From contig JAEZSO010000001.1 of NCBI GenBank assembly GCA_023421795.1, positions 202,556 to 266,555 on the forward strand: DNA of 64,000 bases. Direction: 5' to 3'. The translations under genes were made by a program, and so were the position numbers. This stretch comes from Cyanobacteria bacterium OH_PDB_230. Lineage in GTDB: Bacteria > Cyanobacteriota > Vampirovibrionia > Gastranaerophilales > Gastranaerophilaceae. The notes beneath the pieces are model-generated. The model did not search any database, had not been told where the DNA came from, and saw only the letters and a list, made by a program, of their open reading frames with translations. Below, piece after piece: positions 8,396-57,968 of this stretch (its first letter is position 1; every line of letters begins with the position of its first letter).

Positions 8396-8464
8396 TAGAC
8401 TTATTCTTTATGCCGTCAAATATAAGACAAAAGTGGAGCTTTATTTTGCTCAAAATGGAGTATA

Positions 8465-9442: not shown

Positions 9443-9481
9443 AATTTAAAAAAATAGCCCAGAGCCCGCTTTTATTGTAAA

Positions 9482-17211: not shown

Positions 17212-18882
17212 TTATTTAACTTTTTCTTTGATTTCATTAAATGCTTGCTTTAGTATGTTTAAATCGTGTTCATATTGTTTAATTCTATCTTCATTTTGCT
17301 TGATAACTGACTCAAATTTATTGTTAATGTATTGATATATTTTATGCTGCTCTTCGTAATAAATTTGATCTTGCCTGGAAAATTTTATATTAGAAATATT
17401 AAGCAAGTCTTGATACTTAGAATCTATAAATTCATAGACTTTCTTTTGTTCCGTGAAATATTTTTCATCTGTTTCGGCAGCTTGTATTTCAAGAATAGCC
17501 AATAAATCTTTGCATTTAGAGTCAATGAATTCATAGACTTTTTTTTGTTCTGTGAAATATTTTTCGTCGGTTTCTGCTGTTTTTATTTCAGAAACAGCCA
17601 TTAAATCCTTGCATTTAGAGTCAATAAATTCATAGACTTTTTTTTGTTCAGCGAAATATTTTTCGTCTGTTTCTGCTGTTTTTATTTCGGAAACAGCCAT
17701 TAAGTCCTTGCATTTAGAGTCAATAAATTCATAGACTTTTCTTTGTTCAGCGAAATATTTTTCGTCTGTTTCCGCTGTTTTTATTTCGGAAATAGCCAAT
17801 AAATCCTTGCATTTAGAGTCAATAAATTCATAGACCTTTCTTTGTTCTGTGAAATATTTTTCGTCTGTTTCCGCTGTTTTTATTTCAGAAATAGCCAATA
17901 AATCCTTGTATTTATTTTCAACAAATTCATATATCTTTTTTTGCTCTGTAAAATATTTTTTATTTAATGCATGGATTTCATCATATATTTTTCTGGTTTC
18001 TTGCGCGATTTTGCCTTTATATATTTCTTTTTCAAGAATATATGATATTTGTTTGTATTTGCAGTTGTACATATTATCAAGCCAAGCTATTCTTATCAAG
18101 TAGGCATAATATAGTTCAAATGCAGGGCATCCATTGTAATTTAGCAAAGAGGGCTTATGACGACCTGAAAAATGCAGTATTTTGATGGTTTGGTACTCTT
18201 CATTTAAAACATCTGAATGGAGAGTATGGTCTATTTGGAAATTCCAAATATTTTCAAGGTCTAATATTTTTTCTTTAAAAACCAGATTAAACACATCTTG
18301 ATCTTGCCATAGGAGGGTATCTTCATTTTGTTTTGTAAATTTAAACAATTCCTGCTCTATGTTACACTCTCTCCATTTTTTAAGATTTATGAGCATGACT
18401 CCAGCATTGAAATAAGCAGATAAACTCAATCTCTTACTTTCTTTTTCATTATCTATGTCGCGGGTCATTGCAACGTAGTTATCGTTTAAATTCAATGTAT
18501 ACAGCTCTTTTAAAGAAGACAAGGCAATAATGTCGCAATCCATATACAAAACTTTATCTAATTCAGGCAAAAATGAGGATATTTTATATCTAAAGTAAGT
18601 CGGCTTAGTAACATGGTAGTTTGAATAAGCGCTATTTTTGTCCTTTAGCATAGGGCAATCAATGAATTCATCGTAATCTACACCAATAAAAGTAATATTA
18701 AAATCTTTAATCTTTTTTAACTTTAAGAATCTACTTTTATTATATTCTGATATTCCACCGTCCAAGATGTAGAAGTTAAAGGCTTCATCGCTTTCACTGT
18801 TTTCGATAATCGAAGCTATTGCCACTGCCAACTGCTCGCAATAAGCATTATCACAGCTGAAACATATATCATATACTAGCAT
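17212..18882 (-). CDS. Glycosyltransferase family 8 (LPS glycosyltransferase-like) with a C-terminal repeat/coiled-coil extension
   Basis: The N-terminal ~290 aa have GT8 features: 'FNFYILDGG', the DxD motif 'LYMDCDIIA', 'FNAGVMLINLKKWR' and 'ILHFSG..KP'. The C-terminal ~250 aa consist of 33-aa repeats. Confidence 0.8.
   Translation of the reverse strand: MLVYDICFSCDNAYCEQLAVAIASIIENSESDEAFNFYILDGGISEYNKSRFLKLKKIKDFNITFIGVDYDEFIDCPMLKDKNSAYSNYHVTKPTYFRYKISSFLPELDKVLYMDCDIIALSSLKELYTLNLNDNYVAMTRDIDNEKESKRLSLSAYFNAGVMLINLKKWRECNIEQELFKFTKQNEDTLLWQDQDVFNLVFKEKILDLENIWNFQIDHTLHSDVLNEEYQTIKILHFSGRHKPSLLNYNGCPAFELYYAYLIRIAWLDNMYNCKYKQISYILEKEIYKGKIAQETRKIYDEIHALNKKYFTEQKKIYEFVENKYKDLLAISEIKTAETDEKYFTEQRKVYEFIDSKCKDLLAISEIKTAETDEKYFAEQRKVYEFIDSKCKDLMAVSEIKTAETDEKYFAEQKKVYEFIDSKCKDLMAVSEIKTAETDEKYFTEQKKVYEFIDSKCKDLLAILEIQAAETDEKYFTEQKKVYEFIDSKYQDLLNISNIKFSRQDQIYYEEQHKIYQYINNKFESVIKQNEDRIKQYEHDLNILKQAFNEIKEKVK
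17365..17958 (-). repeat. Six in-frame tandem 99-bp repeats (33 aa each) inside the GT8 gene
   Basis: Protein units follow 'KYF(T/A)EQ(K/R)KVYEFIDSKCKDL(L/M)A(I/V)SEIKTAETDE'. The central four copies look roughly 90% identical at DNA level by eye. The flanking copies are more diverged, and a seventh degenerate copy follows. Confidence 0.9.
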
Positions 18883-19161: not shown

Positions 19162-20109
19162 ATGCCTGATATTTCTGTAATAATACCAATATATAAAGAG
19201 AAAAAAGAGTACTTTGAGCAGGCAATCGAATCTGTTCTCAACCAATCAATTAAAAATATAGAAATTCTATGCATAATAGATGGGGCAGCTCCTGAAATAA
19301 CACCTTTAATAGAGACTTTCTGTAAATCCGACAAAAGAATAAAGTTTTTTAAAAATAGTCACAAAGGCCCCGGGAAAACAAGAAATTTTGGGATAAAAAA
19401 AGCCAGAGGCAAATACATAGCATTTATGGATTCTGATGACTATTATCCTTCTCAAGATGTATTAGAGTCTTTATTCTCTGTTGCTGAAGAAACAAAGATA
19501 AAAGTAGTTGGCGGAAAAACGCTATTTGAAAGTCCAGCGGGATTAGAACCGCCACATTGGTTTTTCAAAAATTATGAAAAACTGTTTTCTGATAAGGCTG
19601 TACAATTAAAAGATTATCAATTATGTTGGGGGTATTGGTGCTTTATATATGAGAGAGAATTTATTCTGAAAAACAGAATTTATTTTCCCGATTATATGAG
19701 ATATCAGGATCCTCCGTGGTTTCTAAAAGCATTGAACAAAGCAGGTGTTTTTTATGCTATGGATAAAGTAACTTACATACATAGAGAACAAGAAGGCAGA
19801 AATTGGCTTAATTCTAACAGGAAAGTAAAAGACCACTTCAAGGGCATTTCTGACGTTCTGCAATATAGTGCGAAAAACCATCTGGATGACTTACATAATT
19901 TTATATACAAAAAATTTCTTACAAATGATGAAAATATACTAAAAAATATAAAGACAACTTTTTTTATATCAAAAGCCGGAATCATAAACCATATATTGAA
20001 ATCAATAGACCCTTCTATTATAAATAAGAGCGATGAGGAATTGCCTTATTTCAAAAATTATAAAGACTATAAAAATAGACGCTCTTTATACAACTTAATA
20101 GATCATTAG
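19162..20109 (+). CDS. Glycosyltransferase family 2
   Basis: 'ISVIIPIYKEKKEYFEQAIESVLNQS...IEILCIIDG' and the 'FMDSDDY' DxD motif. Confidence 0.8.
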   Translation: MPDISVIIPIYKEKKEYFEQAIESVLNQSIKNIEILCIIDGAAPEITPLIETFCKSDKRIKFFKNSHKGPGKTRNFGIKKARGKYIAFMDSDDYYPSQDVLESLFSVAEETKIKVVGGKTLFESPAGLEPPHWFFKNYEKLFSDKAVQLKDYQLCWGYWCFIYEREFILKNRIYFPDYMRYQDPPWFLKALNKAGVFYAMDKVTYIHREQEGRNWLNSNRKVKDHFKGISDVLQYSAKNHLDDLHNFIYKKFLTNDENILKNIKTTFFISKAGIINHILKSIDPSIINKSDEELPYFKNYKDYKNRRSLYNLIDH

Positions 20110-23119: not shown

Positions 23120-23257
23120 TTACTTTGTTGCATAACCACTCCATGACGTATCAATTAGTTCGTCATAGAAGTTTTGTGTACTCATTAGGTCATGATCGCT
23201 TTGAGTTGTGTTATTTACATTAAATAAGTTTTTTAAAAAAGTTAAAAAATTATTCAA
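23120..23257 (-). CDS. Candidate 45-aa small ORF upstream of the ATP-grasp gene (unannotated)
   Basis: A perfect SD 'aaggagg' (23264-23270, minus strand) lies 6 nt before a TTG start. Translation: MNNFLTFLKNLFNVNNTTQSDHDLMSTQNFYDELIDTSWSGYATK*. The ORF ends 34 nt before the ATP-grasp ATG. Confidence 0.35.
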   Translation of the reverse strand: MNNFLTFLKNLFNVNNTTQSDHDLMSTQNFYDELIDTSWSGYATK

Positions 23258-23408
23258 AATAAACCTCCTTTAGTACATTGCGTGAAATTTATTATACAAT
23301 ATTCACTAAAACATTATATCAAATAATAACAAATTCTTCAATCCTCTTGCAATTTAATGCTTTTACCTCAATAATCTAATTAGGATAAAAAGGAATTCAT
23401 TATTAAAA

Positions 23409-25136
23409 ATGTGCGGCATATTTGGCATTAAAGGAATAAATGTAAACATAGAAACAGTGCGGCAAGAGCTAGAGCACAGAGGTCCTGATTTCTTTGCTTC
23501 AAAGACAGCCTCGGATTGGACTTTCGCTCATTCAAGGTTGTCAATAATCGATTTGTCTGAAAAAGGCAATCAACCAATTGAAATCGATGGAGATTTGTTG
23601 ATTTTCAATGGCGAAATCTATAATTACATTGAACTAAAACAAGAATATTTAAATAATGTTGAAACTTTTTCTTGTTCTGATGCCGAAATTTTGCTTCTTC
23701 TTTTGCAAAGATACGGTCTCAATATATTAAATAAATTAAATGGAATGTTTGCTTTTGCTTTTTTTGATAATAAAAACAAATCGGTGCATTTAGTAAGAGA
23801 CCGTTATGGGGTTAAGCCGCTGTATTATTGGGCAAAAGACGGTAAATTTGCTTTTTGCTCAGAAGACTCTGCTTTAATAAATATCTTAAAACTGCCTTAT
23901 ATCTTTAATGATGAATATAAGGATTTATTAATTGAAAAAGCTATTTCTGATTTTGATGAAAATACTTGCATAAGAGACATTTATCAGGTTTGCCCGGGAG
24001 AATATCTAAAAATCAATGATGATTGCAGCATTGAAAAGACAAAATGGTATAACTATTCGGATTATGATTGCGGTTGTGTTGACTATGAAAAAGATTCTGA
24101 AGTAATCGAACACTTTGAATACTTGTTGACAGATTCCATAAAGCTCAGACATAGATCAGATGTTCCTGTTGCCATAACATTGTCAGGTGGCTTGGATTCT
24201 TCTTTAATATATGTTTTGTCAAAAGAAAATCTAGGAACAGACTATGGGGTTTTTACCTATTCCAATAAAAATAAAAATTTAGATGAATTTGAAAAAGTGA
24301 AACGACTTACATCTGAATATGGCGATAGGGTTACGAGAATTGATTATGGTGATGAAACATTGGAAATATTTTCAAAATCCTTACAGGCACTGAATTCTCC
24401 TATTTGGACACCTGCACATACAGCTTATTACAGTGTCTATAAAAAAATAAACGAAAATAATTATAAAGTTGTAATAGAAGGCCACGGCTCAGATGAAATC
24501 CTTGGCGGATGGGCTTATACCTTCCCATTTGCCATAAAAGAATCTTTAGCTAATTTCAAATTTAAATTAAGTTATGATATTTATAAAGCTTATAAATATT
24601 GTGATTTGGCAGAAAAATCAAATTCGGGTTTGGATTTTTTTCAGTTGTTTAAATTTAATAAAAAAGATAAAAACTGTTTTGAAGGATTGTTGGAATACAT
24701 ATTTACAAAAAAAGTTTTGCCCATAAATCTAAGATGCTGGGACAGGCTGTCTATGGCGCATTCCGTGGAGTCCAGAAGTCCATTTTTGGATTTTAGGTTG
24801 GTTGAATTCACAAAAAAACTGCCTCTCAGGTATAAAATCAATAAAATCGGAAATAAAGCGATATTGAGGAAAATATTATACAAGTATGGCAAAAACTATA
24901 TTGCGGATAATAAGCTTAAACAGCCTTATCTTGCTTCAGAAGGGGATTTTTTATCAGAAAACTGCCGTTTTTTGCTGAAATATTATGATAATAATAAGTT
25001 TAATTATGACATTTTAAACTGGGAACAAGGCAATTTTTCTAATGGCTATGACCCCAGAATATATAGAGCTATTGCTTTTGAAATGTTAAGAGAACATTAT
25101 AGCAAGGAGTCTCTAAGTAATAGCTGTATTTTTTGA
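23409..25136 (+). CDS. Asparagine synthase (glutamine-hydrolysing) family amidotransferase
   Basis: N-terminal nucleophile 'MCGI', 'RGPD', 'NGEIYNY' and the PP-loop 'SGGLDSS'. Confidence 0.85.
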   Translation: MCGIFGIKGINVNIETVRQELEHRGPDFFASKTASDWTFAHSRLSIIDLSEKGNQPIEIDGDLLIFNGEIYNYIELKQEYLNNVETFSCSDAEILLLLLQRYGLNILNKLNGMFAFAFFDNKNKSVHLVRDRYGVKPLYYWAKDGKFAFCSEDSALINILKLPYIFNDEYKDLLIEKAISDFDENTCIRDIYQVCPGEYLKINDDCSIEKTKWYNYSDYDCGCVDYEKDSEVIEHFEYLLTDSIKLRHRSDVPVAITLSGGLDSSLIYVLSKENLGTDYGVFTYSNKNKNLDEFEKVKRLTSEYGDRVTRIDYGDETLEIFSKSLQALNSPIWTPAHTAYYSVYKKINENNYKVVIEGHGSDEILGGWAYTFPFAIKESLANFKFKLSYDIYKAYKYCDLAEKSNSGLDFFQLFKFNKKDKNCFEGLLEYIFTKKVLPINLRCWDRLSMAHSVESRSPFLDFRLVEFTKKLPLRYKINKIGNKAILRKILYKYGKNYIADNKLKQPYLASEGDFLSENCRFLLKYYDNNKFNYDILNWEQGNFSNGYDPRIYRAIAFEMLREHYSKESLSNSCIF

Positions 25137-27103
25137 AAAGGTATAATTTTTACTTTTTCTTTACTTTTTATGTAATTAACATTTTGTACACAATCCAATG
25201 AATCTTTTAAAAATTTTAATGATTGGCTTCTTGAATTTGATAAAATATTTTCTGCCATATCATAATTTATAGTGGAATTGTAGACTGCTGAGATATCAAC
25301 GTCAGCGAACGAGTTATAAATTCTATCTTGTAAGTTCAGCAAATTTAGTAGGTTTTTAGCTCTTGTTCCCCCAAGCTTGTTTATATAAATGAAATTTTTT
25401 CTGAAAATAACAGAAAAACAAACACCGTGAAAAGAATCTGTAACAACTATTGAAGCGTTTTTTATATAATTCAGCCATTTAGCTACTGAAGTGATTTTGA
25501 CAACCGGTTCCTCTATGAATGTTGATTTCTCTCTTGCGATGTTGATGAGAGGGATATTTAGTTTTTTTGAAAAATTTTCTAAACAGATTGTGTTTTCTGC
25601 TTCTTGTTTCAAATAATCGTTTGATAGCATATAAAACGCAATATAATCACCATTATTTTCTACAGGTTCTGTATCAATAATTTTTTGGTAGTGCTCTTTG
25701 GTTAAAAGCAATGTCGGATCAAGTGTTTCGGTGCAGTTGATATCATCACCGAATATATTATGGATGACTTCTTTGGCGCTACTTTCTCGAACCGAAATAA
25801 AATCAAATCTTTTTAATAACGTTCTGGCTTTCTTTATCGCCTTTTGGGTTCCAACAAAAGTCTCCATCCCAAAGCTTGCAGCATAGGCAATTATGCCTTT
25901 ATCTTCTTTTGCGAAGTCAAGGAAATATTGTGTAGAAAATTTTCTTGTGTTTATCGTGTTCCAAACCTGATCAGAGCCGACAACAAAAATTGAAAAATCC
26001 TTGTTCAATTCGTAAAATTGACTTGGTTTCCAGAGCCTTTCAGTAAGAGGAATAAATTGCTTTCTGAAATTCACGATTCCTGAGGTTATGTGTTGATACT
26101 TGGGGGATAAGTTGGTTTTTGTATTCAAATTTATGACAGTTGGGTTTAAGCCAAATTCTTTAATTATTTGGCACATCGCATAAGGGACCAAATTCGCGCC
26201 GAAATTTGTGTCGTCAGAAGCAAAACACAATATGCCTACATTTTTTGAAATATCTTTTGGGTTCGATTTTCCAAATTTTCCGAATATTTTCGAGAAGTAT
26301 TTGTGATACGCCTTGAGTACCTCAAGCTTTTTCTTCGAATTGTTTGCAGAAAGATACCAAAATCGTAAATCCTTTAGAAACACATTTTTTATAAGAGTTT
26401 TTGTCTTTTTATCCGCATTTATAAAATATTCTTGAGATTCTAAATATTGACAAGCTTTTATCATATTTTCAAACACAAATTTATAGTTTTTATGACTTAA
26501 ACTTTTCTCTCGGATCTGATAGTTATACAACACTTTATTTATAAATGATATTTTAGGCTTTTTTATAAATACATCAATACAAAAAACTCGATCTTCACTT
26601 ATTTCGAGAGTTTCACAAAATCTTATATTGTGCTCTTTCAAATATCCTGTCCTATAAGCTTTGTTCCATACAACCAGCTCTAAATTGAAAGGGTTGTTTT
26701 GCGGTTTTTTTGATATTTTATACGTTTTGCTCTTATCTTTGTGATGAAATTGAAAATTAAAAAAGATAATGTCAGAAGATTCCTCATCGGCTGTTTTTTG
26801 ATTAATAATTTCAATCATATTTTCTTCAAGCCAATCATCAGAGTCTAAAAATAATAAGTAATCTCCTGAAACTATTTCTAAAGCAGCATTTCTTGCCGAG
26901 GAAACTCCCTTTTTGTTTTGTTTTATGATTTTTATTCTTTCGTCATTATATTTTTTGAGTATTTCAGAAGATCCGTCAGTAGACCCATCGTCAACACAAA
27001 TGATTTCTATGTCTTGGAATGTTTGGTTAATTACACTGTCGAGACACCTTTGTAAGTATTTTTCCGTATTATAGACGGGAATAACTATGGATATTTTTGG
27101 CAT
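25097..27103 (-). CDS. Fusion protein: N-terminal family 2 glycosyltransferase and C-terminal polysaccharide pyruvyl transferase
   Basis: The N-terminus has 'ISIVIPVYNTEKYLQRCLDSVINQTFQDIEIICVDDGSTDGS...LDSDD'. The C-terminal half has 'NFGANL', 'VGSDQVWN' and 'VVTDSFHGVCFSVIF', typical of the PS_pyruv_trans family. Confidence 0.75.
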   Translation of the reverse strand: MPKISIVIPVYNTEKYLQRCLDSVINQTFQDIEIICVDDGSTDGSSEILKKYNDERIKIIKQNKKGVSSARNAALEIVSGDYLLFLDSDDWLEENMIEIINQKTADEESSDIIFFNFQFHHKDKSKTYKISKKPQNNPFNLELVVWNKAYRTGYLKEHNIRFCETLEISEDRVFCIDVFIKKPKISFINKVLYNYQIREKSLSHKNYKFVFENMIKACQYLESQEYFINADKKTKTLIKNVFLKDLRFWYLSANNSKKKLEVLKAYHKYFSKIFGKFGKSNPKDISKNVGILCFASDDTNFGANLVPYAMCQIIKEFGLNPTVINLNTKTNLSPKYQHITSGIVNFRKQFIPLTERLWKPSQFYELNKDFSIFVVGSDQVWNTINTRKFSTQYFLDFAKEDKGIIAYAASFGMETFVGTQKAIKKARTLLKRFDFISVRESSAKEVIHNIFGDDINCTETLDPTLLLTKEHYQKIIDTEPVENNGDYIAFYMLSNDYLKQEAENTICLENFSKKLNIPLINIAREKSTFIEEPVVKITSVAKWLNYIKNASIVVTDSFHGVCFSVIFRKNFIYINKLGGTRAKNLLNLLNLQDRIYNSFADVDISAVYNSTINYDMAENILSNSRSQSLKFLKDSLDCVQNVNYIKSKEKVKIIPFQKIQLLLRDSLL

Positions 27104-27117
27104 GATATAATCATTAT

Positions 27118-28089
27118 ATGATAAAAAATCTTTTGATATTAATTAACAGGAATATTGTTTTAATCGAAAATTACAGATTAAAAAGTGCTTTCAATATTAA
27201 ACATCACTTTATTGATTATATTTTTGCTTTTAACGAATTCACTCAAAAAATTTTTAGGATTTATTTTCGCCTGTTTTCCGTGTTCGGTTATCTTTTAAAT
27301 AAAAAAGTCTCGATAAGAAGTATGGATTTTAATTTGACTACCGAGTGTTCCTTAAAATGCAAAGAATGTGCTTCCATGATGCCTTTTTATGATAGAGAGC
27401 ACCAATATACAATAACGTTTGACCAGTTCAAATGTGACTTGGACAAGTTGATGCAAGGAGTAGACAAAATATATCGTCTTAAATTGATTGGTGGAGAGCC
27501 TCTTTTGGTTAATGATTTGGACAAAATGCTTGATTATACCTGCAAGAAAAAGAAAGTTGTTTCTGTCGAGATAATTACAAATGGTACTCTTATCCTCTCA
27601 GATACTCTATGCTCTGTTCTTGAAAAATATAAGCACAAAGCTCTGGTCGTAATTTCAGACTATACCGAAAATAAAGAACTTAAATCCATAAAAATCAATG
27701 AAATCATAGATAAGCTCAATGCATACGGAGCAAGCTGGCACATCTCAGACTACAGGTGGTTTGAAAAAGGCGATGTTTACAAAAGAAACAGAAGCGCTGA
27801 TGAGATAAAAAAAGTTTTTGAAAACTGTTGGCAAAAAGACTGTATTGCTCTAATGGACGGGAAATTTCACACTTGTACTCGTTCAGTTGCCATAGAGCGT
27901 TTGACTGATTATGAATTTTTAGAAGGTGAATTTATAAATATAAGGGCAGAATCTAATAAGGAATTAACGAAAAAAATGAGACAGTTCTTCGTTAGAGACT
28001 ATTTTAGCGTATGTGACTTCTGTATGTCCTGTTCTGACATAAGGCTTTCACCGGCTGTTCAAACTTCAGAAGTTTTAACAATTAAATAA
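27118..28089 (+). CDS. Radical SAM protein, small class with a C-terminal Cys cluster
   Basis: 'TECSLKCKEC' (Cx3Cx2C), 'LIGGEPLL' and a C-terminal 'CDFCMSC'. Paralogous to the ORFs at 52103 and 53013. The ATG lies only 14 nt from the divergent start at 27103. Confidence 0.7.
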   Translation: MIKNLLILINRNIVLIENYRLKSAFNIKHHFIDYIFAFNEFTQKIFRIYFRLFSVFGYLLNKKVSIRSMDFNLTTECSLKCKECASMMPFYDREHQYTITFDQFKCDLDKLMQGVDKIYRLKLIGGEPLLVNDLDKMLDYTCKKKKVVSVEIITNGTLILSDTLCSVLEKYKHKALVVISDYTENKELKSIKINEIIDKLNAYGASWHISDYRWFEKGDVYKRNRSADEIKKVFENCWQKDCIALMDGKFHTCTRSVAIERLTDYEFLEGEFINIRAESNKELTKKMRQFFVRDYFSVCDFCMSCSDIRLSPAVQTSEVLTIK

Positions 28090-29619
28090 CTTTTTAATGA
28101 TTGATTTAAACAGATACTTCAAAGAATTATATTTTTTCAATTCTTTTTTTAAATTTCTAACATCAACGATAAGGTTATTAAGATAAATTGAAGCGTAGTA
28201 CTCTGGAGCCACATATGCCGTGTAAAACCCGTCATTTTCAGCCAATGTGGGGATTAATCTCTCAATAGCGTGGGTTAATAGTCCATCCGAAGAAGCCAGC
28301 GGCTCTTGGGGAAAATCTTCAAAGCTAAGATTTGCAGATAAAAGAGTTGAAAAAGCCTTGCTTTTGAACCAGAACATCCCGCCAAAAGCCCCTATTGGGT
28401 TGTTGGTTTCAAGTTCAATATTTAAGTTCAATCTATTCTTAATGAACTTTTGGGCATTTTTGTAGTTATCCATCCATTCGTTGCCTATAACATGATAAGG
28501 CGAAATTGTTGGAGGGAAGGGAATTAATAAACCCAGTAATTCATTTTCTTCAAAAGTTGAAAGAATCTTTTCAACGTAGTTCTTGCTTGCAAGAAGTGAT
28601 TCAACGCAATGGTTTCTAAAGTCATCCCCTACTATATTTGTATTCATGTGGGAGCTTGTTTTGGAGTGTACAAAACAAATGTAGTCATATCTCTCTATTA
28701 CATCTTTGCAGGTTACAAGAAGAGCTGTGTTGTCGCGTCCTCTGTTCTCTTGAATTCGATATTCAATTCTGTTTTTATGGTTACAAAAAGCCAACCTGCA
28801 TTTTTCTTCGACACTGTTTGAGGTGGTAATAATATATATATCAGCGTTTTCAGGCATGAGATTTATGTACTTTGAAAAATATTCTATCAAATCTTGCTCA
28901 AATATATAAACAATGAGTGCTGTTTTTTTCCTGCTTGCTATCTTGGTCGTAGAATAATTAGACGGTAATATATAATTGAAATGCAGGTTATCATTTAAAA
29001 GGCTCGATTTGTTTTCTGAAATTAGATCCTTCAATATCAGATTAGTGTCATATGGCGTTTCGGTTTTTATATAGTCAAAAGCATATTTGATTCTGTAATT
29101 ATAGAATGTGAGATTTTCAATAAAGTTTCTCTTAGGTAAAAGCGGGCATTTCTTATGGATTATGTTGCTATCTATCTCAAGCTGATTATCCAGATATTTC
29201 CCATATTTAAAGCCTTTTCTTTCAAGAATTTTGATAAAATCATTCTTGTTAAATATTGATAAAAAATCTTTGAGCTTAAATACTTCTCTTTTAAAAACCA
29301 TCCAACATTTACTGTTGTCCAATGACCAAAAATCATATTCTGACATATGAGAAAATACCTTGTCAAAAGAGAAAAAAGGACCGTAGCAGGAATCATTTGT
29401 GAAAATTATTTCTTCATAATCCTCATAATCGATTGATGATAGTTGAGAATTTTCAATAATTTTTATATTGTTATCAAATTTACCCGATAGGTCTCTTCCA
29501 CTTATTATTACAATGTTAGAGGTTATATTCATCAGTTCTTTTATGGAATATAGAACATACTCAGGCACGTTCGCATCACCTGAATATGTATAAATAATAA
29601 GTCTTTTTATTGTTTCCAA
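28075..29619 (-). CDS. Rhamnan synthesis protein F (RgpF) family glycosyltransferase
   Basis: 'YDYICFVHSKTSSH' and 'GGMFWFKSKAF' resemble RgpF-family motifs, and the ~510-aa size fits. Confidence 0.7.
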   Translation of the reverse strand: METIKRLIIYTYSGDANVPEYVLYSIKELMNITSNIVIISGRDLSGKFDNNIKIIENSQLSSIDYEDYEEIIFTNDSCYGPFFSFDKVFSHMSEYDFWSLDNSKCWMVFKREVFKLKDFLSIFNKNDFIKILERKGFKYGKYLDNQLEIDSNIIHKKCPLLPKRNFIENLTFYNYRIKYAFDYIKTETPYDTNLILKDLISENKSSLLNDNLHFNYILPSNYSTTKIASRKKTALIVYIFEQDLIEYFSKYINLMPENADIYIITTSNSVEEKCRLAFCNHKNRIEYRIQENRGRDNTALLVTCKDVIERYDYICFVHSKTSSHMNTNIVGDDFRNHCVESLLASKNYVEKILSTFEENELLGLLIPFPPTISPYHVIGNEWMDNYKNAQKFIKNRLNLNIELETNNPIGAFGGMFWFKSKAFSTLLSANLSFEDFPQEPLASSDGLLTHAIERLIPTLAENDGFYTAYVAPEYYASIYLNNLIVDVRNLKKELKKYNSLKYLFKSIIKKLFNC

Positions 29620-30605
29620 TAGGAATAAATTCCTTTCTCTATTTCATAATTCATCATTTTAACTTCTCTTTTAGGCTGAGATAAAGCCCATTCAAACATT
29701 TCATTGACTGTGTTTTCAAGAATTGTATTGTCGACAAAACCCAATAATTCTTTTGCTTTTGCATGATTGCAATATGCGAATTGGGCTTCTTTTCTTTTTT
29801 CTAAATATTGAATGTCAGGATTAAATCCAAAATTATGAGCGCAGGTTTTTACAATTTCGGCGGCATTTTTTATTGTAATCGGATTATCAGATCCAATGTT
29901 AATAATTTCTTTGCTGCATTGATTCATTAGTTTTTCCATCGGCTGATTATAAGAACGGATGTCAGTAAATGCTCTTTTTTGAGAACCGTCACCGAATATT
30001 GTAATCGGCTTATTGTCTATGATTTGTCTAACCCAAATCCCTATAACATTTCTATATTTATCCCAGATATTTTGGTACTTTCCGATAACGTTATGGGGCC
30101 TTATGATTGTGTAATCAAGGTCAAAGTATGAATTTGCGGTTTTTAAATCAAGCTCTGTCGCGTATTTAGATATGCCATAAGGATCAATAGGGTTTGGCAA
30201 CATTTCTTCGGTGAAAGGAGGAGAATAAAAATCCCCATAAACAGCCATTGAAGAGGTAAAAATTATTTTTTTACATCCTGCATTAACGCAGGCAGAGATT
30301 ACATTTGTTGAAGCAAGAGTGTTGTTTTGATAGTTAAAATATCTGGCATGATGGCTCAAACCTTCCGCCGCATAAGCCGCAAAGTGGTAAACATAATCAG
30401 GTTTTATCCGGCAAAAAATATTATTGATTGTTTCTCGGTCTGTAAGATCGACATTTATGAAATCTACTCCATCAGGCAAGTTTTCCTTGTAGCCACCAGA
30501 AAAGTTATCTATACCAACTATATTATAGTTTTTTCCCAGTAAATATCTGGCAAAATTGTTTCCGAATAATCCTGCTATACCTGTAATTAAAATCGTGTAT
30601 CGCAC
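29607..30605 (-). CDS. NAD-dependent sugar-nucleotide epimerase/dehydratase (extended SDR)
   Basis: Rossmann motif 'ILITGIAGLFGNNFARYLL' and catalytic 'YGISKYATE' (YxxxK). Confidence 0.85.
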   Translation of the reverse strand: MRYTILITGIAGLFGNNFARYLLGKNYNIVGIDNFSGGYKENLPDGVDFINVDLTDRETINNIFCRIKPDYVYHFAAYAAEGLSHHARYFNYQNNTLASTNVISACVNAGCKKIIFTSSMAVYGDFYSPPFTEEMLPNPIDPYGISKYATELDLKTANSYFDLDYTIIRPHNVIGKYQNIWDKYRNVIGIWVRQIIDNKPITIFGDGSQKRAFTDIRSYNQPMEKLMNQCSKEIINIGSDNPITIKNAAEIVKTCAHNFGFNPDIQYLEKRKEAQFAYCNHAKAKELLGFVDNTILENTVNEMFEWALSQPKREVKMMNYEIEKGIYSYWKQ

Positions 30606-30672
30606 TGAATCCCTTTTGCTATTATTGATATACTTTTGCTGTATTATAACATTCTACAACCTTAAATAATAC

Positions 30673-32433
30673 TTATTTTGGTTTTTTTATACAATATTTA
30701 CTGCGAATTGAGTGAAATTTATTTATCAGTTTATATAAATTGTTTCCATATTTCAGAATATATAAGAAATCAATCTCTACAATCGGAAAATTATCATATA
30801 TAAGTTTCAGCCTTCTGTTTATTTCTTCTTCGCTAATATTTGTGCTTTTATATTCTTTGCAGAAAGAAAATTCTTCATTTATATTTTCTGTTATGCCAAA
30901 CTGCTCTTGCATGGTATATATTGCGCTGTGTGCTTGCAATCCGAACTTGCCTGCCCCATAAGAATCAATATATTTTCTGTTAGCTTCACAAAAATCATAT
31001 GTATGTCGGAAATCTTCTTCTGATTCCGACGGAAAACCGATTATAAGAGATGCATGGTTATAAATCCCTGCATCATGTGAATTTTTAAGAACTTGGGATG
31101 CATATTTAATGTCTATTCCTTTGTTCATCTGCTTTAAAATTCGTTCTGAACCTGATTCCAACCCCCAAAATATAAACCTAAGACCCGATTTGTATAATTT
31201 TTTCAGAAGCTTTTTGGTAAAGCCCTTGTCTAGTCTGCCAAATGAACTGTATTTGATATCAAGTTTCCTCTTTATTATTTCATCTGCTAATTTCTCGTAA
31301 AAAGCAGGAGGAATGCAATCATCGTGGAATCTAAAGAATTTTAATTTATGCTTTTTATTGAGTTCTTCAATCTCATCAATTATTTTATCAACTTTCTTAA
31401 TGCAATAAACCTGCCTGTCGTGCGGAAAACTGCAAAATATGCATTTTCCCCAAGGGCAGCCTTTTGAAAATATAATAGGCATAAGAATATCAGGAGTATA
31501 GTATTTGTCTAAATTTAAGCCATCCAAAGAAATATTGGCAATATTATCCATACTTGTTATTTGTTTTACAGGATTTTTTTTAATATCATCCTGTCCGGTT
31601 TTATAAATTAGCCCGGAAACATTTTCGATATCGGTTTTGTTTTCAATGTAATTTGCAAGTTCAACAATTGAAGATTCTCCGGCCCCTGTAAGTACGGAGT
31701 CACAAAAAATATCGAAGAACTCAGGATATTTTAATATAGCATCGCTATTGTATGAAATAGCTTGTCCACCTATTGTTATATGAGCATTCGTTTTTTCTTT
31801 TAATAATCTTGAGAGAGTCAGGGCTATAGGTATAAAACTGTCAAATGGCACCGATATTCCAATTAAATCAAGGTCGTTAGCGATAATTTCATCAATTTTC
31901 TTTTCAAAGTATTCGATGAAAATATTTTGATTTTTATCAAAACAATAATCTTTGATTTCTTTATAGTTAAGTTTAAAATTGTATGTAATAGGATCTGACG
32001 TGCATTTGCTTGGATAATAGGGCAGCGAGAGGAATATAACTACTTGGTTGATTATTTCGTGCGCGTTTCTCAACAGTTGTGGATTATAGAAATCCTTTTT
32101 GCTTTTCAAAGTTTTTACAGCAACATCAACCTGTGTAATTAACTTGTCTATATATTCAGGATGCTCAAGGTACTTTTTAATTATTTCCTGTTTTTGCAAA
32201 AAGCCATCAGGCATATCGTTATGATCGGTAATTTTTGCTATGTTTTCCATAAGAAGTTTTGTTTTAAGGATATATTCTTTGGAAAGGATGTCAGAATAAA
32301 ATTCAAGATTCAAATCTAATCCAGCCGCATCAAAACCTTTGTTTTTAAGCTGTCCTACCAGCAGGGGAATCGATAAATAAGGCCTGTTTGGCCTAATGCT
32401 TGGAGGAAATATTAAAAGAATCTTGCTGTTCAT
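30673..32433 (-). CDS. B12-binding-domain radical SAM protein (paralogue 1)
   Basis: An N-terminal Rossmann-like B12-type domain is followed by a radical-SAM core. The cluster motif is 'GCPWGKCIFC', with Cx4Cx2C spacing, and 'FWGLESGS' is present. Confidence 0.8.
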   Translation of the reverse strand: MNSKILLIFPPSIRPNRPYLSIPLLVGQLKNKGFDAAGLDLNLEFYSDILSKEYILKTKLLMENIAKITDHNDMPDGFLQKQEIIKKYLEHPEYIDKLITQVDVAVKTLKSKKDFYNPQLLRNAHEIINQVVIFLSLPYYPSKCTSDPITYNFKLNYKEIKDYCFDKNQNIFIEYFEKKIDEIIANDLDLIGISVPFDSFIPIALTLSRLLKEKTNAHITIGGQAISYNSDAILKYPEFFDIFCDSVLTGAGESSIVELANYIENKTDIENVSGLIYKTGQDDIKKNPVKQITSMDNIANISLDGLNLDKYYTPDILMPIIFSKGCPWGKCIFCSFPHDRQVYCIKKVDKIIDEIEELNKKHKLKFFRFHDDCIPPAFYEKLADEIIKRKLDIKYSSFGRLDKGFTKKLLKKLYKSGLRFIFWGLESGSERILKQMNKGIDIKYASQVLKNSHDAGIYNHASLIIGFPSESEEDFRHTYDFCEANRKYIDSYGAGKFGLQAHSAIYTMQEQFGITENINEEFSFCKEYKSTNISEEEINRRLKLIYDNFPIVEIDFLYILKYGNNLYKLINKFHSIRSKYCIKKPK

Positions 32434-32445
32434 CGATAAATTATA

Positions 32446-34194
32446 TCAAAAACTGCCTAGGTATTCAAACAGTTTCGCCTTGTTGATAGGAAGGGCTTTC
32501 TCTTCAAATGCCTTGAGTCTGGCTGTTTTTTCTTCATCAGTTAAATTTTGGTCTATAAAGCTTTGATATGCCATAAACTCGGCTGACATAGTGAGTTCTA
32601 AGCTGAATTCTTCTATTTTTGTATTTATTGGTGAATTTTTATAGAGTACAAATTTTTGATAAAGATATGAATGGATATAATCTTCACACTTCAAGCACAA
32701 ATCAACTGTTTTGTTGAAGTCATCTTCTGTCTCAGATGGAAATCCAAACATAACCGATATGACATTAGAGATACCTGCCTCATAAGAATCTTTAAGAATT
32801 GTGGGGACGTTGTTTGGATCTATTCCTTTATTCATAAGTTTTAAAATTCTATCTGAACCTGATTCTAGCCCCCAAAAGATTCTCCTTACACCTGATTCAT
32901 GCATTTTTTTTAAAAGTGTTTTGGTAAAGCCTGATTCCAGTCTGGCGTAAGAATTATACGTTATTTTTAGATTCCTCTTAATTATTTCATCTGATAACTT
33001 ATCGTAAAAATGAGGAGAAATAGCATAATCACAAAATGAAAATCGATTGATATTATATAGTTGTTGCAATTCTTGAATTTCAGAAACGATTTGTTCTACC
33101 GTTTTATCAATAGAATTGTAACTTTCAGTCTGTTTTCTGGGAAGGTCGCAGAACATGCATTGGCCATAATAGCATCCCTTTGAAAACGCAATTGGAGCTA
33201 CCATATCAGCTGTGAGGTAACTCGTTAAGTCCATACCGTCAAGAGATATTTTTGTTACGCTATCCATATTTAAGAGAGGTTTTACAGAATTTACTTTAAC
33301 CTTATTTTCATTATCTTTGTAGATAATCCCGGAAACATCCTCTAAGCCTGTTTTGTTTTCTATGCAATCCGCGAGTTCAAGGATTGAAGATTCCTCATTA
33401 TGAACCAGTATCGAATCACAAAAAATATCAAAAAACTCAGGATATTCACTAACAGAATCTTTATGATAGGTAAAAGCCTCACCATAAAGAACAATATGAG
33501 CGTTAGTTTTTTCTTTTAAAAGCCTTGCCAGCGTTAAAGTAGGGCAGATATTGCTGTGTTTAGTGCAGGCAATCCCGATTAAGTCAAAGTTTTTATCAAC
33601 AATTTTTGTTTCTATCTTTTCGTTGAAATAATCTATGAAAATATTTTGATTTTTGTCGAAGCAAAATCGTTTTATTTCATCGTAATTTAGACAATAATCA
33701 TACTCAATTCTTCTGTATTTAATTCGGGTCGGAAAATATGGCAATGATATAAACTTCATGGTTTCGTTTATTATATAAGAAGCTTTTTGTAATTCATTAA
33801 GTTCAATGTGCTTTTCTGATTTTATGCTTTTTACGGCTTTATCTATAAGAGTCAGAAGACTGTTTATTTTTTTAGAATCAGCCAAATTTTCTTTGATTGT
33901 TTGCAGCTTTTGTGAAGGGATATCAATAGGATTTTTAATCATCTTTTCAAGAATCTTTTTTGTTTTCAAAATATATTTTGAAGTAAGAACGTCATTATAA
34001 AATTCAATATTTAAATCTAATCCTGTTGCATCAAAGCCGTTATTTTGTAACTGCCCTACCAATACAGGTACCGGCAAATAAAAAGTTACAGGCAACATCA
34101 GAGGCGTTAAAACAAATAAACTTTTGATGCTTTTGTTCTGATTTTTTACAGGAAAGTTGTCTATTTGGTTATGTGTTGAATTAAACATTTTCAA
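32446..34194 (-). CDS. B12-binding-domain radical SAM protein (paralogue 2)
   Basis: Same architecture as paralogue 1, with motif 'GCYYGQCMFC' and 'FWGLESGS'. Long blocks are shared with paralogue 1 at protein and DNA level. Confidence 0.8.
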   Translation of the reverse strand: MKMFNSTHNQIDNFPVKNQNKSIKSLFVLTPLMLPVTFYLPVPVLVGQLQNNGFDATGLDLNIEFYNDVLTSKYILKTKKILEKMIKNPIDIPSQKLQTIKENLADSKKINSLLTLIDKAVKSIKSEKHIELNELQKASYIINETMKFISLPYFPTRIKYRRIEYDYCLNYDEIKRFCFDKNQNIFIDYFNEKIETKIVDKNFDLIGIACTKHSNICPTLTLARLLKEKTNAHIVLYGEAFTYHKDSVSEYPEFFDIFCDSILVHNEESSILELADCIENKTGLEDVSGIIYKDNENKVKVNSVKPLLNMDSVTKISLDGMDLTSYLTADMVAPIAFSKGCYYGQCMFCDLPRKQTESYNSIDKTVEQIVSEIQELQQLYNINRFSFCDYAISPHFYDKLSDEIIKRNLKITYNSYARLESGFTKTLLKKMHESGVRRIFWGLESGSDRILKLMNKGIDPNNVPTILKDSYEAGISNVISVMFGFPSETEDDFNKTVDLCLKCEDYIHSYLYQKFVLYKNSPINTKIEEFSLELTMSAEFMAYQSFIDQNLTDEEKTARLKAFEEKALPINKAKLFEYLGSF

Positions 34195-34513: not shown

Positions 34514-35311
34514 TTGTTTGACGTATCAATAATTTTGGTGAATTACAACACAAAAGAAATAACCAAAAAATGTATTGAATCTATTTATGAAAAAACTCAA
34601 GATGTGAGTTTTGATGTCTGGGTTGTAGACAATGCCTCTCAGGATGGCTCTTGTGAAATGATTGAGGAATGTTTCCCCTGTATTAACCTGATAAAAAATG
34701 ACAGGAATTTGGGTTTTGGTGTTGCAAATAATATTGCGATTGAAAAAAGCAATTCAAAATATGTCTTTCTTTTAAATACAGATACCGTTTTGATAAATAA
34801 TGCCATAAAAATCATGTTGGACTTTATGAACTCCAACGAGGATGCTGCCGCTTGCGGCGGAAGCCTTTTTAATTTGGAAGGGGATTTTGTTTATTCTTTC
34901 GGGATGTTACCGAGGTTAAAAAGCTATACATTTAACAGATTGGGGTTGAGTTTTTTGAATAAACCCGAAAAAAAAGACCGTAAAAAGTCACAGCAGACAG
35001 AACATATAATAGGTGCAGACCTTATGCTCAGAAGATCCGTGCTTAATTCCGTGGGCTTGTTTGACCCTAGATTTTTTCTCTACAACGAAGAGTTAGAACT
35101 TCAATTCAGAATCAATCAGGCGGGTTTTAAGATATATTTTCTCCCTGAAGCCAAAATTATTCATCTAGTAGGACAATCCAGCAAAGATAAAACCCTAAGG
35201 CTGCAATATATGAGAAAAGGTGAATATTTATATTTTGAATTAACACAAAAAAATCTGCCAAAATTTCTTTTGAAAATTCTTTTTAAGTTTCTTGATTTAT
35301 TTGGGCTTTAA
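34514..35311 (+). CDS. Glycosyltransferase family 2
   Basis: 'VSIILVNYNTKEITKKCIESI...VVDNASQDGS...GFGVANN...LLNTD'. TTG start. Confidence 0.8.
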   Translation: MFDVSIILVNYNTKEITKKCIESIYEKTQDVSFDVWVVDNASQDGSCEMIEECFPCINLIKNDRNLGFGVANNIAIEKSNSKYVFLLNTDTVLINNAIKIMLDFMNSNEDAAACGGSLFNLEGDFVYSFGMLPRLKSYTFNRLGLSFLNKPEKKDRKKSQQTEHIIGADLMLRRSVLNSVGLFDPRFFLYNEELELQFRINQAGFKIYFLPEAKIIHLVGQSSKDKTLRLQYMRKGEYLYFELTQKNLPKFLLKILFKFLDLFGL

Positions 35312-35408: not shown

Positions 35409-36329
35409 ATGAGTGGAAAAGGCAAAATTTCTTTTTACCCTAAAAACAGAGGGGATATAAAGTGGAAAGTGCCTTCATTATTTAATAATGATAATCTGGT
35501 TTTGACCCTTACCGATTATTGTAAGGAATTAGGCGTTAAGCAACCTGTAAATTCAGTCTATGGAGGCGTTAAGTCGGCCTGGAGCGGCGGCAGGGTTTCC
35601 CAGCTTGATGAAGTGGAGGAAACTAAGATATATGATATTCTTTCTGAATACAATCAAAGAGATATCTCTTGCGGTTTCACTTTCAGCAATTACAGAATAA
35701 AAGAAGAAGACCTGGAAGATAAATCAGCTAACTTGTTATTAAAAATAGCTTCCGATGTCTCTGATCAAAATTATGCTATTGTTTCTTCAGATATTCTGGC
35801 TGATTATATCAGGTCTAAATATCCCAGAATAAAGTTGATTTCTTCAATAATAAAACCAGTGTATGAACATAAAAATTACGACGAAACACCCGATTATTAT
35901 AATAAACTCTGCGAAAGATACGATAAAGTGGTTGTCAGACCTGAATTTTATTTTGAAAAAGGGTTTATGAAAAAACTAAAGCACAAAAAAAAGATTGAAA
36001 TAATGGCTAATTTAGGCTGCCTGCAAAGATGCCCTTTGGCCTCAAAACATTATGATCTCACTGTGGAATGGGATGCCGGCAGAGAAGCGCAATATACGAA
36101 ATTCTGCCATGTCGAGATGAATAATGTCCAATCTGTTTATAAAACTACAACGATTTGTAGTGAAGACATAGAGGACTTGATAAAATTAGGATTTGAAAAT
36201 TTTAAACTGAAAGGAAGAGGCATATCAGACATCCAGCTTATGGATTCTATAGGCAATTTTATATTTCATCCTACGGGTTATTTTTTGCATTTAGAGATTA
36301 TGGTTTTTAAAAAATTGGGCATTTATTAA
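35409..36329 (+). CDS. Hypothetical protein, possibly peptidase-U32-like
   Basis: Weak resemblance to U32-family layout: 'NSVYGGV...GGR', 'AIVSSDILADYIRSKYPRIKLISS', and Cys residues in 'GCLQRCP'. Assigned from memory only. Confidence 0.3.
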   Translation: MSGKGKISFYPKNRGDIKWKVPSLFNNDNLVLTLTDYCKELGVKQPVNSVYGGVKSAWSGGRVSQLDEVEETKIYDILSEYNQRDISCGFTFSNYRIKEEDLEDKSANLLLKIASDVSDQNYAIVSSDILADYIRSKYPRIKLISSIIKPVYEHKNYDETPDYYNKLCERYDKVVVRPEFYFEKGFMKKLKHKKKIEIMANLGCLQRCPLASKHYDLTVEWDAGREAQYTKFCHVEMNNVQSVYKTTTICSEDIEDLIKLGFENFKLKGRGISDIQLMDSIGNFIFHPTGYFLHLEIMVFKKLGIY

Positions 36330-36334
36330 AGTAT

Positions 36335-37414
36335 ATGAAAGAAAATAAAATCACCTCGTATAGAAAATATTTGGCACTCCTGATTCTGCCTTTATACCTT
36401 TTGATTAGCTGTGTTTGCTTTGATTTTAATCGGGCCAATGCGGAAATTTCGACAAGTATTGCTGCTAATCAGATAAAAAATACTATCGTTAAAGCTGAAA
36501 ACGATTATCTTTATGATGCTATAGGACCTTCAGGCAAGGTAGTACGCTGGTCCAAAAAACCTATAATAATTTATATTCCTCAAAATAATTACTCTAAAAC
36601 AATAGAATCGGCTTTTAAAGAATGGGAAAGGGCAAGCGGTGAAACCGTAACTTTCAAGAAAACCGATTTGAAATCCAAGGCCGATATCCAGATAATTTTT
36701 ACCGAGAAAATAGGCTCCAACTATGGAGGGCTTACAAAAACATATCACCAGAAAAATAATTTGATAAAAGCTGAAATATTCCTTACTGAAAAAAATAAAA
36801 ATCAAAAACCTATAGAAAAACCTAAAATGTACATACTTGCGCTCCATGAGATAGGGCATTCTCTAGGGATCGTAGGACACAGTTCTGACTTGAATGATGT
36901 AATGTCGTCAGAAGATATTATGCAGCTACAGTCACTGAGCGCAAATGATATTAACACATTGAGAATCATATATTCTGACGAGGCCGGCAAACTGGAAATG
37001 CAAAAAGATATATTTGCTAAAAAACTTATAGAACAAGAACAAAAAGTAAAAAATGACCCTGATAATAAAGTTCAGTTGTTGCTTTTGGCCGGCATGTACA
37101 AGAACATGAATCAGTATCCAGAGGCAATGGAAACGTATGAGAAAATAATAAAACTCGACCCTGATTTTGCCCAAGCGTATTATTCTCTTGGCTCTTGCTA
37201 TTATAAAAAGGGGGAGAAACAAAAGTCGCTTGAATTTTTTAAACAGGCTGTAGATAAAGAACCCGACAACTCCATTTTTTTAAAGGTATTAATTAAAGTC
37301 TCCTGCGAAACGAACAATAAAGAGATGGCTAAAAAATACCTTCTGGAATATGTTGCAAAGCACCCTGAAGCTAAAAATGATCCTGTGATAAAAGATTGTT
37401 TTAAAAAGTTTTAA
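36335..37414 (+). CDS. Lipoprotein-type metzincin (matrixin-like zinc protease) fused to TPR repeats
   Basis: Lipobox 'LLISC', zinc motif 'HEIGHSLGIVGHS' with a downstream 'VM' Met-turn, and C-terminal TPR units ('AYYSLGSCYYKKGE...A...F.QA....P'). Confidence 0.7.
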   Translation: MKENKITSYRKYLALLILPLYLLISCVCFDFNRANAEISTSIAANQIKNTIVKAENDYLYDAIGPSGKVVRWSKKPIIIYIPQNNYSKTIESAFKEWERASGETVTFKKTDLKSKADIQIIFTEKIGSNYGGLTKTYHQKNNLIKAEIFLTEKNKNQKPIEKPKMYILALHEIGHSLGIVGHSSDLNDVMSSEDIMQLQSLSANDINTLRIIYSDEAGKLEMQKDIFAKKLIEQEQKVKNDPDNKVQLLLLAGMYKNMNQYPEAMETYEKIIKLDPDFAQAYYSLGSCYYKKGEKQKSLEFFKQAVDKEPDNSIFLKVLIKVSCETNNKEMAKKYLLEYVAKHPEAKNDPVIKDCFKKF

Positions 37415-57952: not shown

Positions 57953-57968
57953 TTTTATTTCCTATGTA

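Follow-up and report, generated by a model that had tools for sequence, protein, structure and literature searches.

Tandem B12-type radical-SAM paralogues with a Cx4Cx2C motif in a gastranaerophilalean island that harbors a small peptide gene: candidate tailoring enzymes of a peptide-centred product

A window of 64,000 nucleotides (the whole stretch of DNA analysed, corresponding to positions 202,556 to 266,555 of contig JAEZSO010000001.1 from Cyanobacteria bacterium OH_PDB_230, of the order Gastranaerophilales) harbors two adjacent minus-strand genes that encode B12-type radical S-adenosylmethionine (radical-SAM) proteins. These are designated here paralogue A (30673..32433, 586 amino acids, aa) and paralogue B (32446..34194, an open reading frame, ORF, of 582 aa). 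As a tentative proposal, the two enzymes would depend on B12 and tailor, probably by C-methylation, a product that is centred on a peptide and probably glycosylated. The proposal draws on the recurrence of a small peptide gene and its ATP-grasp partner in related islands that carry this radical-SAM family, and on the best, though sub-threshold, family match, to a model of enzymes that modify ribosomal peptides.

A small peptide gene beside a TupA-like ATP-grasp ligase

A gene encoding a peptide of 45 aa (MNNFLTFLKNLFNVNNTTQSDHDLMSTQNFYDELIDTSWSGYATK; 23120..23257, minus strand), which was missed by the public gene caller, was found in the same region of the window. Its TTG start is preceded, at a distance of 7 nt, by AAAGGAGG, a strong ribosome-binding site of the Shine-Dalgarno type, and a promoter-like site lies further upstream (23313..23341, minus strand), composed of TTGAAG, a 17-nt spacer and TATAAT with a TG extension, as a consensus match only. 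This strong site was the sole exception in the promoter and terminator scans of the window, which otherwise returned the same counts as shuffled sequence and were thus uninformative on operon limits. A TupA-like ATP-grasp amidoligase (PF14305; 22189..23085, minus strand) follows 34 nt downstream of the peptide gene. Eight homologous peptides have in common a MxFxxFKxFF segment at the N terminus, an acidic linker that closes with DxDFYD..W, and a short variable tail that contains a hydrophobic-Ala-Thr/Lys motif. The peptide of one locus (L020) was recovered by a hidden Markov model (HMM) built without it (E 2e-6), and the ratio of nonsynonymous to synonymous substitution rates (dN/dS) was 0.11 and 0.22 in two pairs of peptide ORFs, indicating purifying selection. 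The conserved features, the blind recovery of the L020 peptide and the low dN/dS altogether indicate that these ORFs of 45-60 aa are real genes. A search of a large protein index with the peptide family returned only the already known loci, and the helical proteins of 100-147 aa that adjoin single radical-SAM genes in other Melainabacteria (clusters c26 and c46) and that were considered as longer homologues of the peptide were unsupported by either the full or the N-terminal HMM.

A peptide gene of 45-60 aa was observed directly beside the TupA-like ATP-grasp gene in all seven islands that combine this ATP-grasp with the radical-SAM family of A and B, namely the window, L002/L084, L003, L004 (with two copies), L020, L073 and L083. 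As a comparison sample, 80 other metagenome loci with TupA-like ATP-grasps, 35-49% identical to that of the window, were analysed. The radical-SAM family was absent from all 80, and the peptide HMM gave no match in them at E<=1, although one divergent peptide of 49 aa was recognised by later inspection next to an ATP-grasp of the module clade (L150, 10844-10993, plus strand). Counted by the presence of the peptide, the radical-SAM family was nearby in 7 of the 8 peptide loci and in none of the 79 peptide-less ATP-grasp loci. Since 79 of the 80 other loci were without the peptide, it could be ruled out that the peptide is a general companion of TupA-like ATP-grasps. The eight module ATP-grasps fell within one clade of 10 in a tree of 87 tips, and the occurrence of the peptide and the ATP-grasp alone in L150 points to these two genes as the minimal unit.

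Other genes recur around this unit. In the Melainabacteria-type loci related to the window, among which L002 also shares its flanking housekeeping genes, the radical-SAM genes adjoin the TupA-like ATP-grasp gene. In L073, a single co-directional run comprises the ATP-grasp, the peptide, a 656-aa fusion of glycosyltransferase family 8 (GT8), radical-SAM and SPASM domains located immediately after the peptide gene (8018-9988, plus strand), and a B12 radical-SAM gene. L020 presents the ATP-grasp, the peptide, a GT8 and a radical-SAM/SPASM gene, and L083 adds YcaO, PMT_2, GT8, glycosyltransferases of family 2 (GT2) and two further B12 radical-SAM genes. U32-like proteins, accompanied by small radical-SAM genes, were found repeatedly (L004, L020 and L073). 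The window contains counterparts of this accessory set. The first is a GT8 protein (17212..18882, minus strand), homologous to the GT8 genes located after the peptide gene of L020 and of L073; its ORF of 556 aa, of which the public gene call spans only the C-terminal 228 aa, has a GT8 domain at residues 6-244, and no function is assigned to the subsequent stretch of about 300 aa. The second is a small radical-SAM protein with a canonical CSLKCKEC motif (27118..28089, plus strand; cluster c12, shared with L004, L016 and L026), and the third a U32-like relative of 306 aa (35409..36329, plus strand), which has no Pfam match and is 29% identical over 175 aa to the U32-like island proteins (pairwise E 2e-9). 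The U32 family includes anaerobic hydroxylases.

Considering these counterparts and a GC content of 0.315 against 0.35 in the flanks, the stretch of 17.2-36.3 kb looks like one island. Four of its genes would be lineage-specific additions: an RgpF-family glycosyltransferase (28075..29619, minus strand), a short-chain dehydrogenase/reductase (SDR; 29607..30605, minus strand), an AsnB-type glutamine-dependent amidotransferase of the asparagine-synthase type (23409..25136, plus strand; TIGR01536, 329 bits, above the cut-off), and a GT2 fused to a polysaccharide pyruvyl transferase according to Pfam (25097..27103, minus strand). No description of a module that combines the peptide, the TupA-like ATP-grasp, GT8, radical-SAM/SPASM and Cx4Cx2C B12 radical-SAM genes was found in the literature searched.

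Enzyme class, cluster motif and family of the two paralogues

A and B are assigned to the class-B (cobalamin-type) radical-SAM enzymes, for which cobalamin binding is predicted. The Pfam Radical_SAM domain (PF04055) was matched by A with 73.4 bits and by B with 68.6 bits, above the cut-off of 29.5, and the B12-binding domain (PF02310) with 24.4 and 20.7 bits, respectively, below its cut-off of 32.1; PF02310 was also matched by 30 of the 38 longer family relatives. The AlphaFold model of A presented a predicted local distance difference test (pLDDT) value of 93 and a predicted template modelling (pTM) score of 0.92. Its top fold matches in the PDB were OxsB, TsrM, MgmA, CysS and TokK, the match to OxsB, TsrM, TokK and CysS spanning both domains, and AprD4 was a further fold match. 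In this model, the Rossmann domain is interrupted at residues ~41-185 by an inserted helical segment of about 140 residues and is followed by the radical-SAM barrel and a C-terminal helical region.

The two proteins share 267 of 545 residues (49% identity, BLASTP E 2e-174). The protein blocks quoted in the preliminary description of this DNA were present in A (FIFWGLESGSERILKQMNKGID and LSRLLKEKTNAHI) and in B (RIFWGLESGSDRILKLMNKGID and LARLLKEKTNAHI), and the DNA block that it had reported occurred in exactly two copies (31145-31170 and 32852-32877; none in 100 shuffles). In addition, three more direct repeats of 41-80 nt, with 71-80% identity, were found in register at a distance of about 1716-1719 nt. 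A and B were each other's closest relatives in a rough neighbour-joining tree, which points to a lineage-specific duplication, and the same pairing argues against their being orthologous to the two copies found in L002, L003 and L004. Tandem copies are common in the family, with 129 genes across 74 loci and up to 8-9 consecutive ones in Clostridia. The public gene call of B is 580 aa long and starts at 34188, two codons later than the 582-aa ORF.

The cluster loop reads CPWGKCIFC in A (residues 326-334, DNA 31432-31458) and CYYGQCMFC in B (residues 341-349, DNA 33148-33174), that is, Cx4Cx2C rather than Cx3Cx2C. The three cysteines of the loop were invariant in 42 aligned relatives, and the Cx4Cx2C spacing, usually as CYWGKCxFC, was observed in 118 of 120 homologues from a word-indexed search and in 130 of 138 representatives from an exhaustive one, which rules out a sequencing or alignment error behind it. 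When the family profile was compared with the PDB, OxsB was matched with an E value of 4.5e-26, SRGCDYSRCTFC being aligned with SKGCYWGKCTFC in the same register. The spacing has been described in the crystal structure of OxsB (PMC9204698) and reported for GenD1, "like GenK" (PMC4340712), and radical-SAM clusters with variant cysteine spacings have been catalogued (PMC9477430). The preliminary description had presented A and B as paralogous B12-type radical-SAM enzymes with a non-canonical cluster motif. Paralogy and enzyme class were both confirmed; the motif proved genuine and kept throughout the family, in which the canonical spacing is not the rule, but it is a family hallmark already known from OxsB and GenD1/GenK and not a new feature.

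Among the NCBIfam models, the best match of A and B, as well as of all 42 aligned family members, was TIGR03975 (rSAM_ocin_1), named "RiPP maturation radical SAM C-methyltransferase" after peptides that are made on the ribosome and modified post-translationally (RiPPs), with an alignment limited to model positions 105-461. A C-terminal PqqD-type peptide-recognition domain was found in at least 17 of the 38 longer family representatives and also in L015, which is 36% identical to A, and L031. Secondary NCBIfam matches, including PhpK, HpnJ, BchE and the ladderane-lipid B12 radical-SAM model, scored 85-121 bits. Membership of TIGR03975, PhpK, HpnJ, BchE, MgmA, ladderane, ApyD, HpnR, ArsL, BzaD and the other NCBIfam class-B families was ruled out, as all scores were far under the cut-offs.

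The motif is present, together with a match that spans most of the family profile, in at least 130 of the clusters formed at 50% identity, and the best 150 representatives all scored above 500 bits, most of them across nearly the full profile length. The exhaustive profile search returned 16,896 representatives at E<=1e-30, a count that presumably extends well past this subfamily into related B12-type enzymes. The family was found in Melainabacteria-type metagenome-assembled genomes (MAGs), Clostridia, Nitrospinota, Scalindua, Dehalococcoidia, Myxococcota and other groups. Judged by these comparisons, A and B are placed in a large, unnamed and uncharacterised subfamily defined by the CYWGKCxFC loop, which would constitute a new subfamily within a known kind of enzyme. 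Six representatives (P0128, P0129, P0133, P0151, P0164 and P0169) are 1,800-2,300 aa long and match the family profile in 6-8 stretches, which suggests three or four B12 radical-SAM units per chain.

The cobalamin motifs common to OxsB, TsrM and TokK are a Gly-Gly on strand beta-4 and a Gly-Glu at the start of helix alpha-5 (PMC9204698). In the family alignment of 42 members, the Gly-Gly was invariant and the Gly-Glu near-invariant. Both are intact in A, in which the Gly-Gly lies within GGQA (DNA 31759-31770; G222-G223, ending strand 218-222) and the Gly-Glu within GAGES (DNA 31672-31686; G252-E253, opening helix 252-263). In B, the Gly-Gly is replaced by YG (DNA 33475-33486) and the Gly-Glu by EE, inside HNEES (DNA 33388-33402), so that the first glycine is lost in both motifs and half of each is kept. 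The cysteine loop of B also presents Y and Q where W and K are conserved, and this combination of YG, EE and an altered loop was observed in B alone among the 42 members. With these degenerate motifs, B is a diverged copy that may handle cobalamin differently.

A further alternative bears on the reaction rather than on the substrate. Under any reading of the substrate, A and B could perform no methylation at all, but a cobalamin-dependent rearrangement or cyclisation of the OxsB/HpnJ/BchE kind, or B could be cobalamin-free or non-catalytic. This chemistry is considered possible, if doubtful. It would agree with the closest solved relative, OxsB, being a ring-contracting enzyme, with the unique substitutions of B, and with the example of AprD4, which has a B12-like domain without cobalamin dependence. 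However, methylases make up the majority of characterised class-B enzymes, the pair's two best HMM matches, TIGR03975 and PhpK, are methyltransferases, and B retains 47 of the 54 family-conserved positions, including the three cysteines.

Proposed pathway and the evidence against it

If A and B are methylases of a peptide-centred product, the core of the island would be formed by the 45-aa ribosomal peptide and the TupA-like ATP-grasp. The MxFxxFKxFF and DxDFYD..W segments of the peptide would serve as recognition elements preceding the variable C-terminal tail, and the ATP-grasp, together with the AsnB-type amidotransferase present here, would form amide bonds at carboxylates. The GT8, GT2 and RgpF glycosyltransferases would glycosylate the same product, with an epimerised sugar provided by the SDR. 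A would then cleave SAM and employ methylcobalamin to install one or more C-methyl groups at unactivated carbons, either in the peptide tail or in an appended sugar, and B would be a diverged second-site enzyme or a partner of A. A more far-reaching form of this proposal, which we regard as rather doubtful, is that the island encodes an undescribed ribosomal-peptide pathway of non-photosynthetic cyanobacterial relatives, in which an acidic peptide of about 45 aa is amidated (TupA-like ATP-grasp), glycosylated (GT8/GT2/RgpF) and C-methylated by Cx4Cx2C enzymes. Taken jointly with that pathway, and with the same reservation, its product could be a new RiPP that bears sugars or else a peptide, encoded by a gene, that is joined covalently to a surface glycan, the latter of which would be a "teichuronopeptide"-like conjugate with a ribosomal peptide part.

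Several observations weigh against a peptide-centred product. In the window, B and A are tightly coupled to the SDR and RgpF genes, whereas the peptide/ATP-grasp pair lies 7.4 kb away from them in a separate transcription unit. The Cx4Cx2C enzymes with defined substrates act on sugar moieties, OxsB on deoxyribose and GenD1/GenK on aminoglycoside sugars (PMC9204698, PMC4340712), and the sole biochemically defined TupA-like domain amidates a polysaccharide glucuronate, that of the capsule of C. jejuni (PMC11800379). The TIGR03975 scores of A (138.9 bits) and B (111.9 bits) are about half of the cut-off of 281.85, which the best of the 42 relatives (E 6.7e-45) apparently does not reach either. 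The PqqD-fused members come from the half of the family that is more distant, with 27-34% identity and ranks of 126 or lower among 243, and no match to PF05402 (PqqD-like) was found in A, B or their neighbours. Moreover, L150 contains no B12 radical-SAM gene and no glycosyltransferase within 10 kb of its peptide, and neither the peptide nor the ATP-grasp was found within 10 kb in relatives just as close to A (P0004, P0010 and P0014, at 41% identity, and L064), so that the linkage is frequent and not obligatory. All the peptide loci come from one bacterial lineage and, consequently, the counts are not phylogenetically independent. Finally, neither an exporter nor a leader protease could be identified in the island, an M10 peptidase-TPR protein (36335-37414) being the sole protease candidate.

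Operon context and the sugar alternative

On the minus strand, B is separated from A by 12 bp and A by 67 bp from the SDR, an enzyme of the nucleoside diphosphate (NDP)-sugar epimerase type (PF01370, 167 bits), which in turn overlaps the RgpF gene (PF05045, 300.7 bits) by 13 bp. Given this tight spacing, the block of 28075-34194 is very probably one transcript, and the co-directional arrangement with SDR and RgpF was as previously described. The preliminary description had gone further and interpreted the block as a rhamnan-type glycan operon in which A and B tailor a sugar, and here the evidence was less favourable. The best solved relatives of the SDR are UDP-glucose 4-epimerases (GalE-type) and not RmlB/RmlD. 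The Pfam lists of the window include no rmlA/rmlC or other rml genes for deoxythymidine diphosphate (dTDP)-rhamnose synthesis, no Wzx/Wzy and no ABC polysaccharide exporter, which leaves RgpF as the only gene behind the "rhamnan-type" label.

Linkage to these genes, chosen beforehand as the test of the glycan-operon interpretation, was then compared in a survey of 79 genome loci with 10-kb flanks, whose ORFs were called and clustered. Homologues of RgpF were found in none of the 79 related loci and homologues of the SDR in only one, which rules out a conserved linkage. The Pfam families seen most often in 75 operon partners from the closer relatives were GT2 (6), TupA-like ATP-grasp (4) and Radical_SAM (3), and no enzyme of NDP-sugar pathways (nucleotidyltransferase, dehydratase, aminotransferase) was present among the top 25 partner families.

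Sugar tailoring must be weighed all the same. In this alternative, which is judged unlikely, the substrate of A and B would be a sugar that belongs to a cell-surface glycan, whether still NDP-bound, lipid-linked or already in the polymer, and the two enzymes would C-methylate or rearrange it in concert with the SDR and RgpF. The peptide and ATP-grasp genes would then be neighbours without a functional tie, or would merely decorate the glycan. The tight B-A-SDR-RgpF operon fits such a role, as do the wealth of glycan genes in the island (three GT2, GT8, pyruvyl transferase and AsnB-type amidotransferase), the position of GT2 at the top of the partner families, and the GT2-like gene that always accompanies the Clostridial arrays. 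It would also be consistent with the sugar substrates of GenD1/GenK and of OxsB, the best sequence-profile and fold match, and with the capsular activity of the TupA-like domain. Against it stand the near-absence of RgpF and SDR from the related loci, the lack of NDP-sugar enzymes among the partners and of rml and export genes in the window, and the many relatives that are solitary or placed beside non-glycan genes; furthermore, it leaves the peptide association and the PqqD fusions unexplained. With the sugar-gene linkage absent, the peptide/ATP-grasp pair recurring and a RiPP model as the best match, sugar tailoring by A and B is therefore possible but no longer the best-supported reading.

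In the weakest alternative, which appears improbable, A and B would modify something else altogether (for instance a lipid, cofactor or small metabolite, or a larger protein such as a flagellar or surface one), and their position in the island would be incidental: the family does occur in heterogeneous contexts (FliD-adjacent in L016/L026, with a nitroreductase in L168, in Clostridial arrays of 8-9 genes, with a HAD hydrolase and a 114-aa helical protein in L001 and L167) and does match the PhpK, HpnJ, BchE and ladderane-lipid models, but the operon coupling in the window and the co-occurrence in seven islands argue against coincidence, and no lipid or cofactor pathway genes adjoin A and B.

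Other family loci and neighbouring genes

Apart from the islands that support a peptide-centred product, the family was observed in further arrangements. Clostridial loci (L008, L085, L006, L011, L018 and L063) contain 4-9 tandem paralogues and one GT2-like gene of about 250 aa, with no obvious precursor peptide in these six loci. In two Gastranaerophilales loci (L016 and L026), a lone family member has on one side a Ser-rich protein without annotation and on the other a small helical protein, after which comes fliD, the flagellar cap gene, with a small radical-SAM gene and a GT2 nearby. In a Clostridium MAG (L061), an ORF of 66 aa (455-655, plus strand) is followed by a GT2, an 835-aa protein and a PIG-L deacetylase, with three family radical-SAM genes and two ABC transporters downstream. 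L061 would represent another arrangement of peptide, glycosyltransferase and B12 radical-SAM genes.

In the window, two other GT2 glycosyltransferases of the island were identified, one at 19162..20109 (plus strand) and the other at 34514..35311 (plus strand), divergent from paralogue B. The start codons of the minus-strand GT2-pyruvyl transferase and of the plus-strand small radical-SAM gene are 14 bp apart (27103/27118), leaving no space for separate promoters unless the real starts differ. Six radical-SAM genes are present in the window in all, three of them small genes outside the island (49573-50427, plus strand; 52103-53002, plus strand; 53013-53891, minus strand). An AIPR abortive-infection-type gene (39333-41147, minus strand) is located just past the island. 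A FliW-CsrA pair (57494-58240, minus strand) and LpxK, LptC, Mla and GT9 genes, also in the window, indicate a flagellated organism that bears lipopolysaccharide.

Significance and comparison with known systems

Class-B radical-SAM enzymes catalyse some of the hardest C-H functionalisations, and for most of their sequences, which number tens of thousands, no substrate has been assigned. With the peptide described here, a large Cx4Cx2C subfamily gains a concrete and testable substrate candidate, which is short enough to be synthesised or co-expressed. If the proposal of a peptide-centred product is true, B12-dependent peptide tailoring would reach a new lineage, that of gut and environmental Melainabacteria, TupA-like ligases would acquire a peptide role, and enzymes of the glycan type and of the RiPP type would meet in one pathway. 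If sugars prove to be the substrate instead, the synthesis of cell-surface glycans would gain its first assigned B12 radical-SAM step.

Ribosomal peptides are found together with radical-SAM/SPASM enzymes and glycosyltransferases in single clusters in the cases of glycocins and of mycofactocin with its MftF glycosyltransferase, and these offer an analogy for the island. The enzyme families are different here, with no SunS-type or MftA-F signature at cut-off.

The closest structural relative, OxsB of oxetanocin A biosynthesis (PDB 5UL2-5UL4), resembles A in its cobalamin-binding Rossmann domain and radical-SAM barrel, in the Cx4Cx2C loop and in the Gly-Gly and Gly-Glu motifs (PMC9204698). The identity is only 16-18%, however, in an alignment that covers OxsB residues 167-513 only. 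The extra N-terminal domain of OxsB is missing here and, instead, the Rossmann domain of A is split by the helical insertion of about 140 residues. OxsB contracts the deoxyribose ring of dAMP, dADP or dATP in a context that is neither glycan nor peptide, and no HD phosphohydrolase of the type of its partner OxsA is present among the annotated neighbours in the window. GenD1 and GenK, compared by description, are likewise class-B enzymes with Cx4Cx2C, and they C-methylate sugar carbons (PMC4340712), thus providing a precedent for the sugar idea of the preliminary description. Unlike A and B, they are part of an aminoglycoside cluster of actinomycetes and have a pseudo-oligosaccharide antibiotic as their substrate, and the window is without aminoglycoside genes.

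The ATP-grasp of the island shares PF14305 with the TupA-like ligases (the C-terminal domain of Cj1438, WemR and CfmP), which amidate carboxylates of surface polymers (PMC11800379), and one TupA-like member has been linked to the modification of a fimbrial protein (PMC13419641). In contrast to the ligase of the window, none of the members described so far comes with a small peptide gene of its own. The TIGR03975 family, in turn, comprises B12-type radical-SAM enzymes that act on ribosomal peptides, as is proposed here for A and B, and the peptide family found in these islands is a different and undescribed one.

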